Source: a virus
Direction: 5' to 3' (one strand)
Virus genome (UHGV): UHGV-0081265
DNA: 13,782 nucleotides
In this document: in pieces, positions 1,893-13,782 of the stretch
Numbering within the stretch: the first letter of the stretch is position 1
Layout: each line of letters opens with the position of its first letter
Program-made: the position numbers and the translations under genes
The notes under the pieces: generated by a model
The model's input: the letters and a program-made list of their open reading frames with translations, nothing else
Databases searched by the model: none
Told to the model about the DNA's origin: nothing

Positions 1893-1941
1893 CGCATTCG
1901 TAATGCGAAGGTCGTAGGTTCGACTCCTATTATCGGCACCA
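1893..1941 (+). other. partial tRNA-Thr (thrW-like) 3' segment, 49 nt, ending in CCA; attachment-site remnant, not a complete tRNA gene
   Basis: CGCATTCGTAATGCGAAGGTCGTAGGTTCGACTCCTATTATCGGCACCA matches the anticodon-loop-to-CCA portion of E. coli tRNA-Thr(CGU) as I recall it. The upstream sequence does not continue into the D-arm or acceptor stem. Confidence 0.7.
1925..1941 (+). repeat. 17-bp att core direct repeat, left copy (TCCTATTATCGGCACCA)
   Basis: Identical 17-mer occurs again at 13351-13367. Together they bracket an ~11.4 kb gene set that begins with an integrase. Confidence 0.75.
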
Positions 1942-2053
1942 TCTCTTAGTATTTCCAAGTCATCTCAAATCAACAAAACCCTTTAAAAACATAGATATTA
2001 CGCGATTTTTCGTCATTTGACGTCAACCCCTATCTCTTGAAATCAACATACAA

Positions 2054-2106
2054 TTGGGGGCACAATCGGGGGCATGTTCTGTTCGGTCTAGGAAATGTGC
2101 CCCCAA
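2054..2106. promoter_or_regulatory. GGGGGCA repeat cluster with an 11-bp inverted repeat (TTGGGGGCACA / TGTGCCCCCAA) ending at the integrase start codon; candidate Int arm-type sites and/or start-sequestering hairpin
   Basis: Direct GGGGGCA copies at 2056-2062 and 2068-2074, inverted copy at 2096-2106 abutting the ATG at 2106. Similar GGGGGCAT motifs sit on the other side of the att core at 13269-13292. Confidence 0.4.
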
Positions 2107-3287
2107 TGATGCTGAATGCCCGCAAGGTTGAAGCCGCTAAAGGAAAAGAGAAGAGCTATAAGCTATCTGATGGAGGTGGCCTGTACCTTCAGGTTGAACC
2201 TAATGGCTCGCGTTACTGGCGTATGAAGTATCGTTTTGCTGGTAAAGAGAAGCGCTTGTCCTTTGGTGTCTATCCAACAGTCACCCTCGCAGATGCCAGA
2301 CAAAAACGCGAAGACGCAAAGAAACTACTCGCAGCAGGTGAAGATCCTGGCGAAGTGAAAAAAGCAAAGAAGCATGCTTTAAACGCAGCGACCGAGACAC
2401 TTAACCCATTCAGAGAAGTGGCGTTAGAGTGGCACAAAATGAAATCTCCCAAATGGTCTGAGGGCTATGCTTCAGACATCATTGAGGCGTTTGAGAAAGA
2501 CATTTTCCCGCATATTGGACACAGACCTATAGCCGATATTCAGCCCCTAGAACTACTTGAAGTACTGAGGTTGATAGAAGCACGAGGCGCTATGGAGAAA
2601 GCGAAGAAAGTCCGTCAGCGATGCGGTGAAGTTTTCCGCTATGCCATCGTAACGGGTAGAGCAATCTACAATCCTGCACCGGATCTTGCCAGTGCGATGC
2701 AAGGACATGAAGCAGTCCACTATCCATTCCTCAAAGCCAACGAGCTGCCGGAGTTCTTTACTGCCCTTAACGCTTATTCAGGAAGCCCAATTGTATTGCT
2801 GGGGGCACATTTACTTATCCTGACGGGTCTAAGAACAGGAGAGCTAAGAGCAGGTGAGTGGCGTGAGGTGGATTTTGATAATGCGGTGTGGGAGATTCCC
2901 AAAGAACGTATGAAAATGCGACGTGCTCATATTGTGCCGCTTTCAAATCAAGCATTAGTCCATCTTGAAACCTTAAAAGAACTGACTGGAAACTATCCTT
3001 TGATGTTTCCTGGGCGTAACGATCCAAGTAAGTGCATGAGTGAGGCCAGTATTAATCAGGTCTTTAAGCGTATTGGATATGCTGGCCGTGTTACTGGCCA
3101 TGGCTTCAGACACACAATGAGCACTATTTTGCATGAAAAAGGCTTCAATAGTGCATGGATTGAAACCCAGCTTGCACATTTGGATAAAAATGCTATTCGG
3201 GGGATATACAATCATGCTCAGTATCTTGAGGGGCGTCGGGAAATGATGCAATGGTACAGTGATTTTATTGGTGGAACGGAGTCTTGA
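2106..3287 (+). CDS. int: P4-family tyrosine integrase (start moved to the internal ATG at 2106; the ORF-track start at 2037 is a TTG)
   Basis: N-terminal arm-binding-type region (KLSDGGGLYLQVEPNGSRYWRMKYRFAGKEKRLSFGVYPTVTLADARQKRED) typical of P4-like integrases. Catalytic Arg (LTGLRTGELR), His-x-x-Arg (GHGFRHT) and Tyr (IRGIYNHAQY). Lies directly downstream of the tRNA 3' fragment in the same orientation. Confidence 0.9.
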   Translation: MMLNARKVEAAKGKEKSYKLSDGGGLYLQVEPNGSRYWRMKYRFAGKEKRLSFGVYPTVTLADARQKREDAKKLLAAGEDPGEVKKAKKHALNAATETLNPFREVALEWHKMKSPKWSEGYASDIIEAFEKDIFPHIGHRPIADIQPLELLEVLRLIEARGAMEKAKKVRQRCGEVFRYAIVTGRAIYNPAPDLASAMQGHEAVHYPFLKANELPEFFTALNAYSGSPIVLLGAHLLILTGLRTGELRAGEWREVDFDNAVWEIPKERMKMRRAHIVPLSNQALVHLETLKELTGNYPLMFPGRNDPSKCMSEASINQVFKRIGYAGRVTGHGFRHTMSTILHEKGFNSAWIETQLAHLDKNAIRGIYNHAQYLEGRREMMQWYSDFIGGTES

Positions 3288-3290
3288 GTA

Positions 3291-4079
3291 ATGGCAAATA
3301 ATACTCTCAAGCTTCATCGAACTCATTATAGCATTAGTGAGACCGCTAAAATATTGGGCTGCGATGAGCAAGATGTTATTTATATTGCGGATGAAAAAGA
3401 CATTCCATTGTCGCTAAGAATGTGTGGGCGATGGTCTTTTTCAAAGCATAAAGTAAGAGATGTGGACTCCTTTATTCAGAATATAAACTCTTTGAAAAAA
3501 GACAAAGATGGTTTCAGTTATATATCTGAGTTTAGTTTGATTAAGATTAATGAAGTTAAAAAAGATAAAAAACTAGTGCTGGCGAGTACAAAAGGCTATT
3601 TCCAAATGCCACCAAAGGTTAAAAGTGATTTCGTTTTTTATGAAGGGCAGTTCCCGGAGTACCCATCATTGTTATCTCCTGCTGGTACCACCTATTCTGA
3701 AATGGTCAAATATATTCAAATTGACTGGAAAAATGATGATGGGTTTGGATATGAGGGAGATGCGTACCTGGAGCGGGAAGATGTAAAGAAATTGCATCTA
3801 ATATTAAATGATGATGTTTCTAATGATAAATATAAATCGTTATCAATTGCACAGCAAGAAAGACATGCTACCAAGAGAAATGAGATTCTAAGTGTAGCAT
3901 TATATCTTTATAAAGAGGATATGGCATACCGAAAGGAAAATGCAGCAGCCCTTGCTGACCTTATCTTTAGTCGGGCTGAGGAATTTTGGCCTGATAAAAA
4001 AGAGCCTCCGCTATCACACCCAATTATTAGCAAACTAATATCATCTATATTCAAGAAACCATCATTTACAAAAAATTAA
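3291..4079 (+). CDS. hypothetical protein: N-terminal excisionase/AlpA-type HTH plus ~190-aa domain of unknown function; AT-rich
   Basis: ATG 4 bp after the int stop with RBS GGAACGGAG. Residues ~14-60 (ISETAKILGCDEQDVIYIADEKDIPLSLRMCGRWSFSKHKVRD) resemble the Xis/AlpA helix-turn-helix. Markedly lower GC than the flanking int gene. Followed by a strong terminator. Confidence 0.7.
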   Translation: MANNTLKLHRTHYSISETAKILGCDEQDVIYIADEKDIPLSLRMCGRWSFSKHKVRDVDSFIQNINSLKKDKDGFSYISEFSLIKINEVKKDKKLVLASTKGYFQMPPKVKSDFVFYEGQFPEYPSLLSPAGTTYSEMVKYIQIDWKNDDGFGYEGDAYLEREDVKKLHLILNDDVSNDKYKSLSIAQQERHATKRNEILSVALYLYKEDMAYRKENAAALADLIFSRAEEFWPDKKEPPLSHPIISKLISSIFKKPSFTKN

Positions 4080-4086
4080 CAATTTT

Positions 4087-4121
4087 GGCGAGTAAGGAGA
4101 TTTTTCTTACTCGCCTTTTTT
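4087..4121 (+). terminator. rho-independent terminator ending the int-orf262 transcription unit
   Basis: 10-bp perfect stem GGCGAGTAAG / CTTACTCGCC, 9-nt loop, followed by TTTTTT. Confidence 0.8.
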
Positions 4122-4186
4122 ATATTTTTGAACGATGTTTTAATCCTCTTCGTTGATATAGATTGATACATAGAGAGGAACTCATT

Positions 4187-4387
4187 ATGGGGTTTACTGA
4201 TAATCGTCCTTCTGCTGACTCGCTCATTGATATGAAATTCATTACATCTGATTGTCTTTTTACTGATAAATGGATTTATAAACTGATTTCTCTGGGACGT
4301 TTTCCTAAACCAATCAAGTTAGGTCGTATGTCCCGATGGCGTGCTGGTGACTACTATGCTTGGCGTGATAGTCATTCTTCAGAGTAA
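4187..4387 (+). CDS. alpA: AlpA/Vis-family phage transcriptional regulator / excisionase-like DNA-binding protein
   Basis: Sequence FITSDCLFTDKWIYKLISLGRFPKPIKLGRMSRWRAGDYYAW is the classic AlpA-family HTH motif. Start placed at ATG 4187, 6 nt after RBS AGAGAGGA; the ORF-track start at 4163 is a TTG. Confidence 0.8.
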   Translation: MGFTDNRPSADSLIDMKFITSDCLFTDKWIYKLISLGRFPKPIKLGRMSRWRAGDYYAWRDSHSSE

Positions 4388-4423: not shown

Positions 4424-5296
4424 ATGAATTACCGTCTACAACCAGCGGGGAGTCAATACATATCCCTTCCAATTAAGAATGAATATGTTTCCGTGTTAGG
4501 AAACTATAAAGTAAGTCCGTTTAAAGAAACTCATAGCGACACTGCATGTATTGTGCGAATTATTGAAATATTTTCATTGAATAAGCTGCGCGCTAAAGGT
4601 GAAAAGCTGTATTCACTTACGGGGTTAACAGTACCTGATACGGAAGCTGTGGCGAATGAGATCAACCTGCTCCTGAGCCGTTATGCCCAGTTGTGTCGTC
4701 AGGAAGAGGAAGAGTTATCTTTCCGGCAGCGTGAAGTGACAAATGCGGAAGTTGCATGGAAAAGCACATTCTCAAAAAACGGCGTCAGTAGCATTGCTGA
4801 AGCCAAAACGAATAAAACGGGGCATGCTGAACGAGCGGATGCTGAACGGTGTTACCATCTGGCTGTTTCTCGGCTGAATGAGCAACATAGCCGACTGAGC
4901 ACAATCAAGCTTTTACCGGGCGTACTGGTCGATGAAGTTAACTACATTGGTAAGGGAGTTGAGAAGCGTTTACTGAGCATATTTCCTCAATCCGGCCAGA
5001 TCCCTGCTGATTTTATTTCTGTGTTTAATGACAGTGACGTTGTTCGTGATATTAAATTTATTACAGATGCACTCAAATCTTTGTCTGATTCTGTGAATGA
5101 AATTATTAGCCGTTGTAGCGTTCCAACTGATCGTTATGTATTAAATAACGGTGGAATGGCAAGAGCTATGGCTTACAGGGAGTACTATCGAGCAGATAAT
5201 TATGTATTACGTTCAGTCGTTAGTGACCGGGATTATGTTGAGCATGTAATGAAATACAATCGGGTTACTGAGTACAAAAATAAAATCTTTTCTTAA
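4424..5296 (+). CDS. hypothetical protein, 290 aa; possible head-morphogenesis partner of the downstream capsid homolog
   Basis: Good RBS (GAGGAG) before ATG 4424. Sits immediately upstream of the GpN-like gene (23-bp gap). No family recognised by eye. The capsid-related role is inferred from position only. Confidence 0.6.
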   Translation: MNYRLQPAGSQYISLPIKNEYVSVLGNYKVSPFKETHSDTACIVRIIEIFSLNKLRAKGEKLYSLTGLTVPDTEAVANEINLLLSRYAQLCRQEEEELSFRQREVTNAEVAWKSTFSKNGVSSIAEAKTNKTGHAERADAERCYHLAVSRLNEQHSRLSTIKLLPGVLVDEVNYIGKGVEKRLLSIFPQSGQIPADFISVFNDSDVVRDIKFITDALKSLSDSVNEIISRCSVPTDRYVLNNGGMARAMAYREYYRADNYVLRSVVSDRDYVEHVMKYNRVTEYKNKIFS

Positions 5297-5318: not shown

Positions 5319-6323
5319 ATGTATGCCTTCAAAACTGAAAGGCCGGACGCAGCACGTCGTTATCATAATAAATTCGTCACTGGTACTAACTATCAGGAGG
5401 AATCAAACAGACGCTTTGCATTAAGCGAACCCACTGAAAATATACTGCGTACCTCAATTCTGGAATCCGGGTGGCTTATTAAAAATATCACCCTACGTGA
5501 TGTTAACGCCGTGTCAGGTAATGCCGTCAATATTGGTGCCAGTGAACTGCATACCGGACGTGTGGATGGTGGCCGTTTCCACAAAAAAATGGCAATCAAT
5601 GGTACGGAGTTCTTTCTGACAGAGACGGATACCTGCGCCCGGATCAGCTATTCCGATATGTCTCATATTTACCATACCGGCGTGCCGGATGAGTTTGAGA
5701 AAACGGTTGAGAGCTTTTTTTCCCAGGCATATGCGCTGGACATGCTGCGGGTCGGTTTCAACGGTGTGTCGATTGCAAATACTACAAACCCGGAAATCAA
5801 TAAAAAAGGCGAGGATGTCAATATTGGCTGGCATGCACTGGCGAAAGCTTACGGGAACGGGAAGCAAATCATTTCTGAGCCTGTCACGCTGGGAGAGTCT
5901 GGCACCTGGAAAAACATTGATGCTCTGGCCAACCATCTGATTACTGAGCTTATTGCTGAGCAGTTTCGTGAAGATCCCCGTCTGGTTGTACTGGTTGGGG
6001 CAGAGCTGGCAGCACATCAACGCCTGAAGTTATTTAATGCCGCAGACCGCCCGGCTGATGTGAATGCGGCACAGATGGCGACAAGTTCTGTTGCTGGCCG
6101 CTTTGCGTTTATTCCCCCGTTTATGCCGGGTAAGCGTCTGGTAGTAACGACGCTGGATAATTTGCATATTTACACTCAGGCGATAACACGGTGGTTTCGT
6201 GCTGAGTTTGATGATGAAAACAGTGAATACGTACATTCCTACCTGCGTAATGAAGGCTATGCACTCGGTGAACCTGAACTGTACGCGGCTGTCGATGAGA
6301 GCGCCCTGACGTTTGCTGATTGA
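5319..6323 (+). CDS. P2 GpN-family major capsid protein homolog (HK97-fold capsid protein)
   Basis: 334 aa with RBS AAGGTGA. Several blocks align to P2 GpN as I recall it: ALDMLRVGFNGV vs SLDFIMAGFNGV; DALANHLITELIAEQFREDPRLVVLVGAELAA vs DALVMDATNNLIEPWYQEDPDLVVIVGRQLLA; TTLDNLHIYT vs TKLENLSIYY. Similar length to GpN (357 aa). Confidence 0.7.
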   Translation: MYAFKTERPDAARRYHNKFVTGTNYQEESNRRFALSEPTENILRTSILESGWLIKNITLRDVNAVSGNAVNIGASELHTGRVDGGRFHKKMAINGTEFFLTETDTCARISYSDMSHIYHTGVPDEFEKTVESFFSQAYALDMLRVGFNGVSIANTTNPEINKKGEDVNIGWHALAKAYGNGKQIISEPVTLGESGTWKNIDALANHLITELIAEQFREDPRLVVLVGAELAAHQRLKLFNAADRPADVNAAQMATSSVAGRFAFIPPFMPGKRLVVTTLDNLHIYTQAITRWFRAEFDDENSEYVHSYLRNEGYALGEPELYAAVDESALTFAD

Positions 6324-6363: not shown

Positions 6364-6520
6364 ACAGCATCAGGAAAAATGAAGAACTATTTTTAAGCAG
6401 AGGCTTAAGCATGCCAGCGTTAATTAATCCAGGCAATCATCAGTTTTCGGTTATAAATTTCTTGCCTCACAAGGAATACGCGGGATATAGTTCAAAGGTT
6501 GCCGCAAAATCGGCAGCCGG

Positions 6521-6786
6521 GCGTAGGAACCCGTGTAATCTAACGGCGACACAACACGCGCCAGGCGTGTTTTTTTGTGTCGTAGCTTTGACTCACCTTC
6601 GTTTTATGGTGTGGTGGCTGACTGCATGTTTTTATTTTTTACGCCACATCATCAGAATTATGGTAGTCCAGGCGGGGCAGCTTTCGGGCTGGCCGGTATC
6701 CGTTAGAGCCGGTATTCCTACCCCCGTCTGGGCTACCACCCATGAGCGTAGGAACTCCGGTGGTAGCGTTACCCGCTATCTAACGG
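6521..6786 (+). ncRNA. P4-type RNA immunity region: two direct repeats (seqA-like 6521-6546, seqC-like 6746-6786) flanking a complementary seqB-like element (6700-6721); candidate CI-RNA-like immunity RNA
   Basis: GCGTAGGAAC...ATCTAACGG occurs twice. Between them, CCGTTAGAGCCGGTATTCCTAC is the reverse complement of both sub-blocks (GTAGGAA and TCTAACGG). An internal terminator (6554-6576) and a 9-bp stem (GCTACCACC / GGTGGTAGC, 6731-6767) are present. Position upstream of the small-ORF/primase operon matches P4 organisation. Confidence 0.45.
6554..6576 (+). terminator. rho-independent terminator inside the immunity region
   Basis: Stem ACACGC / GCGTGT with 5-nt loop, followed by TTTTTT. Confidence 0.7.
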
Positions 6787-10321: not shown

Positions 10322-10347
10322 TTATCGCGTGAGTCTTATTTTTATGA

Positions 10348-10540
10348 GGTAACACTGGTAACAGAGGTAACGCCCGCTACTGATGCGGTTCTTCAGTGTT
10401 ACCAGTCAAAAATACTGACTGGTAACAGAGGTAACAAAAAATGGTGCGTTACCACGCGTTACCTCTTGATTATGTTAACTGGTAACAGATTAAATCCTTT
10501 TAAATCAATAGCGTTACACGTGTTACCAGTGTTACACGTT
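10348..10540. repeat. iteron array (GGTAACA / TGTTACC heptamers, at least 10 copies, direct and inverted); candidate crr/ori-type binding sites for the primase-helicase
   Basis: Copies at 10348, 10357, 10366, 10397 (inv), 10421, 10430, 10448 (inv), 10457 (inv), 10481, 10522 (inv). 17-bp direct repeat CTGGTAACAGAGGTAAC at 10355-10371 and 10419-10435. 12-bp perfect inverted repeat TGTTACCAGTCA / TGACTGGTAACA at 10397-10408 and 10416-10427. Lies immediately 3' of the primase gene, as P4 crr does; P4 iterons (TGTTCACC) are similar. Confidence 0.6.
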
Positions 10541-10603
10541 CAGAACAAGAGGTAGGGACCCAAATCCCTTCTTCTGGCGGGCAACAGTAAAGGGCACAGA
10601 ACG

Positions 10604-10876: not shown

Positions 10877-11482
10877 AGTATGCGTCGGGAATGGCCGATC
10901 CGTTCCCGGAACCTGACCACAGGATTTCAGTTTATACGAACATAAAATTATTATTTTTCAATTTGTTATGTTTTTCGTATTTCACGAACCTTCATAAAAT
11001 CACACACCTAAAATAAATTATCCATTTAATATCATAGTGTTGCGTATTCAGGCCACAAATGCGACGGACAGTAAAACTGAAAAAAGCTGAATTTCTTTTC
11101 ATTCTTTTCAGTTCCTGCCTCGCAGTGCATCCCCAGCACGGACGCGGGCTGGCGGTATCGTTTGTAAAAAATCACAACTGAAAAATTTTAGTGATATGAA
11201 AACCGCAGGCGGGTGCGGTGTAGTGCGATTTTGGTCTTATAAAGATTTGTGTCTTAAAATTAATTAATGGTTTTAACTATTTGTTTGGAATTAATTTCAC
11301 AATGTACATGTTTGATATGAATGATAAATTAGTATATGCTTGAGTAAAGAAATGATGTATATTTTTATGGTCGAGGTGTAAGCGCTTTTTTGATGTATTT
11401 AATAGGTGTATGTTTTTATTAATCGGAGAATTGTTAATATTTATAATTGTTATAAAATAGAAATCGCTATGAAGGTGTGTAT

Positions 11483-12085
11483 ATGAGAGATAATTCAAAT
11501 AAAGTAAAGGGGTATGTAAGACGTAAAGTTGATTTGTATATTTTGTCATTAGCTATTTTATTTTGTTTTTTTATTTTTATTACAATAAAATTTCCTGTGT
11601 GTTTTGGGGCTAAATGTGAGTTCATTGGCTGGTCTTTGCTGTTGAAAAATAATATTGTTCCCTTGATTTGCGTAGGGTTGCTTTTATATTGTGGGGTGGC
11701 CTACAAAAGGTTTCAATATGACACAAATAAAAGTGTCGAACTTCCAATGAAAATAACAAAAATTGAAAAAATAAATTATGAGCACCTTACCTTTTTAGCC
11801 ACATATATTATCCCATTGATTACATTTGATTTTGAAAAAGAAAGGTATGTGATCGTTCTAGCAGTTCTCTTGATAATTATGGGTATTATTTATATTAAAA
11901 CGGATTTGTTTTACGCTAATCCATCCTTGGCTTTATTAGGGTTTAATATTTATAAGTTGGATGTGAGTATAACAGGAGGTATTAATAAAACAGGGCTAAT
12001 ATTAATTACTAGGCGACAGTTAAAAGAAAATGACATGATAAGTTATATTGTGCTTGATGAAAGAGTTTACTATTCTGGAGATTAA
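11483..12085 (+). CDS. small 4-TM membrane protein (200 aa); first gene of an AT-rich two-gene cargo; KwaA-like architecture, unverified
   Basis: ATG 11483 after RBS GAAGG. Four hydrophobic helices (LYILSLAILFCFFIFITI, IVPLICVGLLLYCGVAY, LTFLATYIIPLITF, YVIVLAVLLIIMGIIYI) then a ~60-aa soluble tail. Very AT-rich. A 10-bp gap separates it from the next gene. Confidence 0.65.
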   Translation: MRDNSNKVKGYVRRKVDLYILSLAILFCFFIFITIKFPVCFGAKCEFIGWSLLLKNNIVPLICVGLLLYCGVAYKRFQYDTNKSVELPMKITKIEKINYEHLTFLATYIIPLITFDFEKERYVIVLAVLLIIMGIIYIKTDLFYANPSLALLGFNIYKLDVSITGGINKTGLILITRRQLKENDMISYIVLDERVYYSGD

Positions 12086-12094
12086 GGATTAAAT

Positions 12095-13078
12095 ATGTCA
12101 CCGCAGCAATTGGATAAAAAAGGCTTGGATGATAATCTAAGTTATTATATTAATAATAAAGATGATATTTCTGTTATTGTTTATGCCATTCTAAAAAATA
12201 GCCCTGTTGCATATCGAATGGATATAGAGGGAAGCGCTCAAGATGGCCTCAAAGAATTATTTTTAGAAAGTATAAAAAATAATATCATTGATAATGATGA
12301 TATCAGTATTTTACCTCTTTCGTCAGCAGATGAAAGAAATAATGTTATTTATCATTACGATATTGAATGGCCTGATGAGTTAACCTCCATGCAAAGTATG
12401 CTTGGGCAGCAAGGGGAGAGTGTTTTTGATTTTAATGTACAAAATATTGAAGATATTAGAGTGTTGCTAATTTGTATTGGTAATGTACAACAACAAATTA
12501 TACTCTACAAAACAATGGCTCCAGTCAATATTTTCTCTCGCTCAGGTTTTTTTCTAAAAAAATCAGCAACAAGACTTGAGGAAATTGAAGATGATTTTTT
12601 TCGAGTTAGTGATAATTTTCAAATTATCAAAGTTGAAAATGATTTATATGTGGTAGATCTTAAGTTAATCGAGAAAATGTTTGGTTTTCACGAGGTTATC
12701 AAAAAAGAGGCTACACTTGGCATGAATGCCATTGAGAGTATGAATATTATCACTGATATAAATGTGATAAAAGAACTAATAGATGATGTAAAATATGCTA
12801 GAAAACTAACAAGGATAGCAAAATCTTCTCCAGTAATATTAGCTAATATTGAAAATGAAAAAATTATAGAGTTTTGTAAAACCTACCCAGTGTTGGTCAA
12901 TAGAATCAGATTTAATGAAGATGGAACAAAGATCGCACTTGACACGAAGGTTTCAAAAGATCTATTTATTAAAATTCTGATGGATGATTTTTTAACCTCA
13001 CAGTTGACTCAATTTTATTATGAGAGTCTAGCAAAAGATGCAGTAAAAATAGCCGCTGATAATACTAAAGAAAACTAA
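12095..13078 (+). CDS. 327-aa soluble protein, second gene of the two-gene cargo; size and context fit KwaB (DUF4868) of Kiwa, but domain not confirmed
   Basis: RBS AAGGA before ATG 12095. Acidic, AT-rich, no TM segment, no obvious nuclease or NTPase motif by eye. Followed by a terminator hairpin. Lies in the variable position next to attR. Confidence 0.65.
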   Translation: MSPQQLDKKGLDDNLSYYINNKDDISVIVYAILKNSPVAYRMDIEGSAQDGLKELFLESIKNNIIDNDDISILPLSSADERNNVIYHYDIEWPDELTSMQSMLGQQGESVFDFNVQNIEDIRVLLICIGNVQQQIILYKTMAPVNIFSRSGFFLKKSATRLEEIEDDFFRVSDNFQIIKVENDLYVVDLKLIEKMFGFHEVIKKEATLGMNAIESMNIITDINVIKELIDDVKYARKLTRIAKSSPVILANIENEKIIEFCKTYPVLVNRIRFNEDGTKIALDTKVSKDLFIKILMDDFLTSQLTQFYYESLAKDAVKIAADNTKEN

Positions 13079-13083
13079 TTAAT

Positions 13084-13109
13084 ATTGTGGTGAGATTATT
13101 CACCACAAT
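13084..13109. terminator. terminator-like hairpin after the cargo operon
   Basis: 10-bp perfect stem ATTGTGGTGA / TCACCACAAT with 6-nt loop in AT-rich context, 6 bp after the stop of the 327-aa gene. Confidence 0.5.
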
Positions 13110-13268
13110 AATATTATCTAATATATTGATTGTGTTTTAAGTGTTTTAATTCTATTGTGAAAAAATTGACTTTGTTTTGATTTGGCAAAATTATAGCTTT
13201 TCTATTACTCACCCTGATGAAATGATCGATTAATCTATCTAGCATGCTGAAGTTACAGCTAAGGTGTA

Positions 13269-13292
13269 GGGGGGGGGCATTTTAGGGGGCAT
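13269..13292 (+). promoter_or_regulatory. G-run / GGGGGCAT repeats adjacent to the right att core; candidate integrase arm-type sites
   Basis: GGGGGGGGGCAT (13269-13280) and GGGGGCAT (13285-13292), same motif as the copies next to the left att core at 2056-2075. Confidence 0.35.
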
Positions 13293-13350
13293 TGATATGA
13301 TTGTTGTATTTTTTTATTAACAAAAACATTGTGTTATCGTTGTATTTTGT

Positions 13351-13367
13351 TCCTATTATCGGCACCA
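13351..13367 (+). repeat. 17-bp att core direct repeat, right copy (TCCTATTATCGGCACCA)
   Basis: Exact copy of 1925-1941 (the tRNA-Thr 3' end). Upstream sequence no longer matches the tRNA, so this is the element-distal junction. Confidence 0.75.
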
Positions 13368-13644
13368 TTAAAATCAAATTGTTACGTAAGATCTTATCAT
13401 TCTCCCACCAAAAAATTATCTTAATGTAACAGCTGGTGTAAGTAAATTCTATCAACGAAGATCAATCTTATCTACTGACCAAAAAGGCCTGATAGGGCTT
13501 CGCTCACTATACATCCTTGGCTGCAGGTTTAGTTGTACACCACTCCTAAATTTAATGTGTTGGCAATGTGTTCAATAAAGCTCGAACAAATTAGCTCATT
13601 ATGATCGGTTAATACTTCAACTTCTGGTTGCATGATTGTTTGTC

Positions 13645-13729: not shown

Positions 13730-13782
13730 GGTAATGACTCCAACTTATTGATAGTGTTTTATGTTCAGATAATGCCCGATGA
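13730..13782 (+). mobile_element. IS1 terminal fragment (left-end inverted repeat); element continues beyond the right edge of the window
   Basis: GGTAATGACTCCAACTTATTGATAGTGTTTTATGTTCAGATAATGCCCGATGA, perfect inverted copy of bases 1-53. Confidence 0.85.

Follow-up and report, generated by a model that had tools for sequence, protein, structure and literature searches.

A stretch of viral DNA of 13,782 nucleotides (nt; UHGV virus genome UHGV-0081265; 'the window' denotes this whole sequence) contains an 11.4-kb element between two attachment cores. This element is a P4-like satellite inserted at a tRNA-Thr (thrW-type) site, and the start codon of its integrase gene, int, lies at the edge of an inverted repeat. 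Five copies of the motif G5CA(Y), three ahead of int and two at the opposite end of the element, are probably the arm-type binding sites of an attachment site of the phage P4 type, with roles in intasome assembly and in autorepression (probability about 0.82, judged from the sequence). By analogy with what is reported for P4, assembly of an intasome and repression of int by its own product are the most likely functions. The arrangement is a known and ordinary one, P4-type arm sites and not a new RNA switch, and no new mechanism is revealed. The inverted repeat would be a by-product of one arm site in opposite orientation, which would explain the presence of a hairpin that apparently occludes the ribosome-binding site of int.

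Probable arm repeats on both sides of the attachment core

The heptamer GGGGGCA was found seven times in the window (expected, 1.38), a number reached in none of 200 shuffled sequences. Five of the seven copies are clustered, at 2056(+), 2068(+), 2098(-), 13273(+) and 13285(+). The proximal cluster is located 115-160 nt inside the core of attL, the distal cluster 66-78 nt ahead of the core of attR, and the spacing in both direct pairs is exactly 12 bp. The repeats were designated S1 to S5. On the int side S1 (TTGGGGGCACA, 2054-2064, plus strand) is followed, 12 bp further on, by S2 (TCGGGGGCATG, 2066-2076, plus strand). S3 is TTGGGGGCACA in inverted orientation (2096-2106, minus strand) and is situated between a Shine-Dalgarno-like AGGA (2090-2093, plus strand, read from the sequence; relatives have GGAG or GGAGG at the same place) and the ATG of int. 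On the int-distal arm S4 (GGGGGGGCATT, 13271-13281) and, 12 bp past it, S5 (TAGGGGGCATT, 13283-13293) are both on the plus strand.

A first-pass annotation of this DNA had described TTGGGGGCACA (2054-2064) and TGTGCCCCCAA (2096-2106) as exact reverse complements and the repeat as reaching the start codon of int. The sequence agrees: the repeat shares its last A with the ATG at 2106-2108, and the perfect inverted repeat actually comprises 12 nt, 2053-2064 pairing with 2096-2107. The G5CAT copies it had listed are likewise present, i.e. GGGGGCAT at 2068-2075, 13273-13280 and 13285-13292, a run of nine G (13269-13277) leading into the first distal copy. By itself the inverted repeat is mildly unusual. 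Perfect inverted repeats of at least 11 nt with a loop of at most 60 nt are expected 0.24 times in a window of the same size and composition, and one or more occurred in 17% of Markov simulations. Therefore, the case for a function rests on the clustering of the motif and on its conservation; it is conservation in relatives which shows that the inverted repeat is real. The remaining two GGGGGCA copies, at 2801 (inside int) and 9169, are probably within chance. The copy at 2801 was considered as a sixth site similar to an intragenic repeat in P4 and was rejected: it is about 695 nt into int versus about 290 nt in P4, and two extra copies do not exceed chance.

The cores of attL (1925-1942) and attR (13351-13368), both on the plus strand, are an exact direct repeat of the 18-nt sequence TCCTATTATCGGCACCAT. 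It matches the 3' end of tRNA-Thr, as seen in a comparison with the full gene in the related locus L001. The attL copy covers the 3' end of a 49-nt fragment of tRNA-Thr(CGT) (1893-1941, plus strand), which is identical to the 3' part of the full tRNA-Thr of L001. ARAGORN detected no tRNA in the window, and Rfam returned a sub-threshold tRNA match at 1867-1934. The int gene (2106-3287, plus strand) codes for a P4-family tyrosine integrase with the Pfam domains Arm-DNA-bind_3 (5.9e-28), Phage_int_M (3.9e-35) and Phage_integrase (2.6e-23). Its ATG is 181 nt past the core start and is directly followed by a second in-frame ATG at 2109.

The same layout is annotated in phage P4. The record NC_001609 has 'attP arm sequence repeat' features as two direct copies upstream of int, 12 bp apart (3954-3965 and 3942-3953, the equivalents of S1 and S2), an inverted copy at the int start (3915-3926, S3) and, beyond the core (4078-4097), two direct copies on the other arm, again 12 bp apart (4163-4174 and 4151-4162, S4 and S5). 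In int orientation the P4 copies read GTGGGGGCACA, AAGGGGGCATA, TTGGGGGCATA and TTGGGGGCATC, and the inverted one is TTGGGGGCACA; the motif common to the window and P4 is TGGGGGCAY(A). We rebuilt the attP of the window by joining attR arm, core and attL arm and aligned it to P4 attP. The two were collinear with 61% identity; the repeats and the hexamers TTGAAA/CAYAAT were nearly identical while the core differed. Next, the geometry was compared in seven elements, the window, P4 (its distal pair counted by hand), L086 (a leuX P4-like prophage), L002, L003, L008 and L009. From the CCA end of the tRNA to the first G of S1 there were 115-116 nt and to the C-run of S3 157-160 nt; S4 was 93-96 nt and S5 81-84 nt ahead of the CCA end. 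Hence the window has at sequence level what characterizes a P4-type attachment site: an arm-binding integrase, a duplicated core from a tRNA 3' end, and five repeats with a P4-like motif at P4-like distances.

Taken side by side, the window and P4 share the motif, the five copies with their orientations, the 12-bp spacing, the distances (S1 at +115, S5 at -82), the inverted copy at the int start, an integrase of the same family with an arm-binding N-terminal domain, and a promoter-like TTGAAA-18-CAYAAT with its -10 hexamer in S1. They differ in the core, which is the 3' end of tRNA-Thr in the window and of tRNA-Leu (leuX) in P4, and in the cargo: the element of the window carries a P2-family capsid gene and the Kiwa system, and psu and sid were not recognizable in this P4-like satellite. 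The two also differ in the reading frame of the ATG inside S3. P4 has it in frame with int and annotated as the start codon, whereas in the window the ATG at 2095 opens an out-of-frame mini-open reading frame (ORF). The latter has four codons (2095-2109, ATG TGC CCC CAA TGA, MCPQ*), and its stop overlaps the int ATG (AATGATG). In the group of L001 the equivalent ATG is in frame with int, as in P4. Two possible start codons have been reported for P4 Int.

Motif classes among integrase relatives and the proposed function

A scan of one genome per species (GTDB) yielded 80 integrase relatives with 56-100% amino-acid identity, and the loci were aligned on the start codon. Two direct copies and one inverted copy upstream of int were present in 57 of them. 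The motif occurred in five classes, GGGGGCA (30 loci), GGGGGCY (11), GYGTRTA (10), TGGTAYA (5) and GGGGGTA (1, to which the E. coli loci L002 and L003 can be added), and the three proximal copies changed jointly between lineages. The N-terminal sequence of Int also differs between motif classes.

Wherever both arms were readable, the distal pair was again spaced by 12 bp and, with a partial exception in L009, had the motif of its own lineage. One way to reach the distal arm was to detect attR by an exact core repeat. Among the 80 loci, with flanks ending 10 kb past int, this succeeded for L008, L009, L067, L073 and the window. The distal pair is GGGGGCA twice in the window and in L008, GTGTGTAG twice in L067, and GAGTGTAG plus GCGTATAG in L073. 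L086 has GGGGGCA plus AGGGGCA, and GGGGGTA occurs twice in L002 (27713 and 27725) and in L003 (30383 and 30395). On the plus strand downstream of int the pattern GGGGG-N7-GGGGG had five matches in 418 kb, all of them located just inside an attR core, compared with a single match in 1.33 Mb of control sequence. The proposal of the first-pass annotation that the G5CAT motifs are integrase arm-type sites on both attachment flanks is strongly supported: the repeats correspond one-to-one to the annotated arm repeats of P4 and co-vary with the integrase lineage on both arms.

This covariation fits DNA sites that are read by the N-terminal arm-binding domain of the integrase. L001, a restriction-modification island with different cargo and without an annotated excisionase (AlpA-like) gene, has the same GGGGGCA sites at the same spacing upstream of int. 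The sites are kept across this island, islands resembling phage-inducible chromosomal islands (PICI; L002, L003) and P4-like satellites, which have only the integrase in common. Therefore, Int is favoured as the reader over an AlpA/Vis-like protein. In heterobivalent tyrosine integrases such as that of lambda the N-terminal domain sits on the arm sites and the catalytic domain on the core (PMC2951348). Similarly, the Arm-DNA-bind_3 domain of Int would bind S1-S5 and its catalytic domain the core. Arm-core bridging would then build the intasome, for integration on attP and, together with an excisionase, for excision (attL x attR).

A second function is suggested by the position of a predicted promoter. 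In a consensus scan TTGAAA-18 nt-CACAAT (2037-2066, plus strand) was the only promoter-like site on the int strand between 1840 and 2200. Its -10 hexamer is in the 3' half of S1, and the predicted start of int transcription falls in S2; we regard it as a candidate Pint. P4 has TTGAAA-18-CATAAT at the identical offset, and the subfamily of the window keeps the TTGAAA/CACAAT hexamers there. With the -10 hexamer in S1, the predicted start in S2, and S3 placed between Shine-Dalgarno site and ATG, binding of Int to S1-S3 would block the int promoter. This would shut off int transcription, i.e. constitute a negative autoregulation. There are precedents. According to secondary accounts of Piazzolla 2006 (PMC2951348, PMC7286903), both Int and Vis of P4 repress Pint, Int by binding to DNA near the transcription start. 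The integrase of the pathogenicity island PAI I-536 represses its own promoter (PMC7286903). In KplE1 IntS represses its own int expression, and the IntS arm sites overlap the intS promoter (PMC2951348).

The KplE1 (CPS-53) IntS/attL/PintS system of E. coli K-12 may be compared more closely. As in the window, int is placed beside the tRNA-side attachment site, and the promoter is embedded in attL with arm-type sites overlapping the -10 region (Panis et al. 2010, PMC2951348), which resembles the layout predicted here. Repression of int by both Int and the directionality factor was shown experimentally in KplE1, whereas in the window repression is proposed from the sequence; the KplE1 arm motif (it contains TAAA), the number of sites and their layout differ as well. 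Lambda also has five arm sites, P1, P2 and P'1-P'3, split 2 + 3 as in the window, read by the N-terminal domain of the integrase and bridged to the core, yet the integrase subfamily and the fold family of the N-terminal domain are different. Further, lambda int is neither transcribed from within att nor autoregulated through arm sites.

Several points weigh against this assignment or limit it. In L009, which belongs to the GGGGGCA lineage, the distal pair is GGGGGTA plus GGGGGCA, so the match with the lineage is not perfectly strict, and attR was readable in only about nine elements. The covariation between motif class and N-terminal domain of Int is confounded by phylogeny. The role of the arm sites in P4 is taken from the GenBank annotation and from secondary accounts, and we infer arm-site binding in the element of the window. 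Lastly, the hexamers at the Pint offset are weak in other lineages and the candidate promoter is a consensus match; the autoregulation step is thus less secure than the identification of the arm sites.

If the assignment is right, it fixes the ends and the attachment site of the 11.4-kb satellite at a thrW-type site. The P4 arm-site module, i.e. motif, geometry and promoter, would have been reused with a tRNA-Thr instead of a tRNA-Leu core and with a very different cargo. Tabulating arm motifs against the integrase N-terminal domains with which they co-vary could aid the prediction of attachment sites and cross-reactivity among the many P4-family integrases of Enterobacterales islands, PICIs and satellites. 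Five motif classes at a fixed geometry would be a natural covariation set for the recognition code of Arm-DNA-bind_3.

Some features around the proximal repeats may be mentioned here. In L041 and L048 the arm motif is present in inverted orientation twice, at the start codon and again 15-18 nt past S2. Between S2 and S3 a box GTTCGGTC (2081-2088, plus strand) is conserved, its counterparts in other lineages being GTTCAAT or GTTCGAT. A second box, (A/G)AATCAA, is found about 8 nt ahead of S1 (window 2028-2048) and is, like the former, conserved across lineages with differing arm motifs (L001-L083). Both boxes could be sites for a host factor resembling integration host factor (IHF), excisionase sites or promoter elements. 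An IHF site at the (A/G)AATCAA box was rejected: the box is similar to the WATCAA half of the IHF consensus, yet no TTR half is found at the right distance.

Chance, excisionase sites or an RNA hairpin

Could the repeats be a chance clustering of a functionless G-rich word? An inverted repeat of such length turned up in 17% of the simulated windows, and the copies at 2801 and 9169 probably are due to chance. Against this stand the excess of the heptamer over shuffled sequence, the conservation of number, orientation and spacing in P4 and in 57 of the 80 relatives, and the finding of the distal pair exclusively beside attR cores. The comparative data refute chance clustering, and we consider it extremely improbable. 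Alternatively, the repeats might be recognized not by the integrase but by an excisionase or regulator, e.g. an AlpA/Vis-like helix-turn-helix protein. The element has an AlpA-like ORF (4163-4387), its Pfam match being weak (6.4e-4, below the curated cut-off). The 12-bp spacing fits directionality factors, which typically bind direct repeats separated by about one helical turn, and Vis, too, is described as a repressor of Pint in the secondary accounts of P4 (PMC2951348, PMC7286903). However, sites on both arms plus an inverted copy are the pattern of integrase arm sites, and the P4 record labels the repeats as arm repeats of attP. Moreover, the same GGGGGCA sites exist in L001 where an AlpA-like gene is not annotated, PICI-like and P4-like elements that have the sites share the integrase alone, and the motif class tracks the N-terminal sequence of Int. 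Excisionase sites are thus a very unlikely explanation.

The first-pass annotation had further claimed that in mRNA the repeat can pair and would sequester the int initiation region. GGGGGCA(C/U) of S1 or S2 would pair with UGUGCCCCC ahead of the AUG and lower Int translation or attenuate read-through, either as the main or as a second function of the repeats. The folding that it had suggested was carried out with 2040-2125. The hairpin (S2 or S1 with S3) was indeed part of the minimum-energy fold, as it was in that of 1943-2135, provided that the whole region is transcribed; its stability was unremarkable in comparison with shuffled sequences. The 86 nt of 2040-2125 gave -30 kcal/mol (z = -1.81; 9 of 200 shuffles folded as well), and the 193-nt attL arm 1943-2135 was no more stable than shuffles (z = 0.11). 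Other observations are in line with a hairpin. The two stem arms co-vary across lineages (GCA/UGC, GUA/UAC, GCY/GGC), and a start codon 0-5 nt past the end of the inverted copy is found in 52 of the 57 relatives that have the layout. In ICEKp1, stem-loops in the 5' untranslated region of int cut the expression driven by a tRNA promoter, and a 15-bp segment of the other end was proposed to pair with one of them (PMC13023037). In P4, expression of Int has a post-transcriptional layer as well (PMC2951348).

Nevertheless, the claim is not supported. The stem-arm covariation is not specific to paired positions: the distal-arm copies, which cannot be in the leader when the element is integrated, carry the same base changes. 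S3 can pair with S4 or S5, 11 kb away, at 8-11 of 11 positions compared with 9-11 of 11 for S1 or S2; any two copies of the motif in opposite orientation would thus be complementary to this degree. Neither P4 nor L008 retains the perfect 11-12-nt match seen in the window. Since the -10 hexamer is inside S1 and the predicted start inside S2, the predicted leader is devoid of the 5' stem arm. Accordingly, the leader from the predicted start, 2072-2135, folded no better than shuffles (-10.4 kcal/mol, z = +1.22). A long leader would have to be fed from further upstream, yet what precedes int in the window is a 49-nt tRNA fragment and a divergent integrase gene, and no tRNA promoter. Finally, in the five loci of the TGGTAYA lineage S3 keeps its 19-nt gap to S2 while it is 24 nt ahead of the ATG and clear of the ribosome-binding site. 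As the gap between S3 and S2 is constant and the distance to the start codon shifts, the conserved constraint is the S1-S2-S3 geometry and not occlusion of the start. An Rfam scan of the int leader gave no family match, only one sub-threshold chance match to a microRNA hairpin model. Altogether a regulatory hairpin appears quite unlikely; the data do not support sequestration, although it is conceivable in transcripts that start further upstream.

A combination of both, in which the arm sites double as DNA sites and as a state-dependent leader structure, we regard as an unlikely extension. The RNA of S3 would pair with any direct copy present in the same transcript. While the element is integrated, S1/S2 would be available in transcripts that come in from upstream; in the excised state S3 may also pair with S4/S5 in transcripts that cross attP from the side of kwaAB, genes oriented in the same way as int. 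If so, the state of the element, integrated or excised, would govern Int translation or read-through, and the arm-site layout of P4 would be linked to the stem-loop attenuation and other-end pairing of ICEKp1. In ICEKp1 (PMC13023037) the integrase gene is about 200 bp downstream of a tRNA gene, comparable to the tRNA-side int of the window. Stem-loops in the attachment arm lower int expression from upstream transcripts, and the other end of the element is complementary to one of them. The difference is that ICEKp1 is driven by an intact tRNA promoter, and such a promoter is absent upstream of int in the window. The stem-loops are not related to arm sites in that publication (PMC13023037). By analogy, stem-loops together with other-end pairing are what opposed arm repeats would look like in RNA. 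Binding of the five repeats by Int remains the reading that we prefer.

The satellite and its surroundings

The ends of the window are a perfect 53-nt inverted repeat (1-53 and 13730-13782), which we take to be the end of IS1. In E. coli AH04 copies of IS1 are annotated at places that match the window ends. The 11.4-kb element itself is also present in E. coli AH04 and in Citrobacter youngae. To the left of the tRNA fragment there is a second tyrosine integrase gene on the minus strand (731-1834), divergent from int, and a phage ORF of unknown function (32-721, phrog_26661). From the second, divergent integrase and the tRNA fragment it follows that the locus is a tandem array at the thrW site. 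What lies to the left represents the right-hand part of a further element inserted at thrW and truncated by IS1 at position 53, and the 49-nt tRNA-Thr fragment was left by tandem insertion. In L002 and L003 tRNA fragments likewise precede int.

The satellite has a gene for a P2-family major capsid protein (5319-6323; Pfam PF05125, 4.8e-67; phrog_70). Its identity to phage capsid proteins in the searched collection does not exceed 49%. The core gene set described for P4 (PMC8628076) does not include a capsid protein of the helper's family. The capsid gene is preceded by an ORF of 290 amino acids (4424-5296), at the place where P2 has its scaffold gene; this ORF had no PHROG, Pfam or phage tblastn match. 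In addition, the element encodes an Ash/Icd-like ORF, a DUF927 primase and an Ogr/Delta zinc finger. P4-type immunity RNAs (6485-6743) are located inside the Ash/Icd-like ORF: the C4 antisense RNA (6656-6743, 81 bits) and isrK (6498-6575, 71.8 bits) were above the Rfam thresholds, and the c4-a1b1 target model (6485-6537, 44.6 bits) was slightly below the cut-off.

A complete Kiwa defence system with KwaA (PADLOC 4.4e-83) and KwaB (2.6e-131) is situated at 11477-13078, between the ogr/delta gene and attR. In P4-like satellites this position is known as a hotspot for defence systems (cf. PMC9122126). Between the primase gene and ogr/delta there is an iteron cluster (10334-10550), with ACTGGTAACAGAGGTAAC at 10354, 10418 and 10478 and nested inverted repeats (GTTACC/GGTAAC). 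It probably is a replication origin or a region required in cis. Directly past kwaB a perfect 11-nt inverted repeat, TATTGTGGTGA...TCACCACAATA, was noted at 13083-13110. It looks like a terminator, though a clear T-run is missing, and would separate kwaAB transcription from attP in the excised form.

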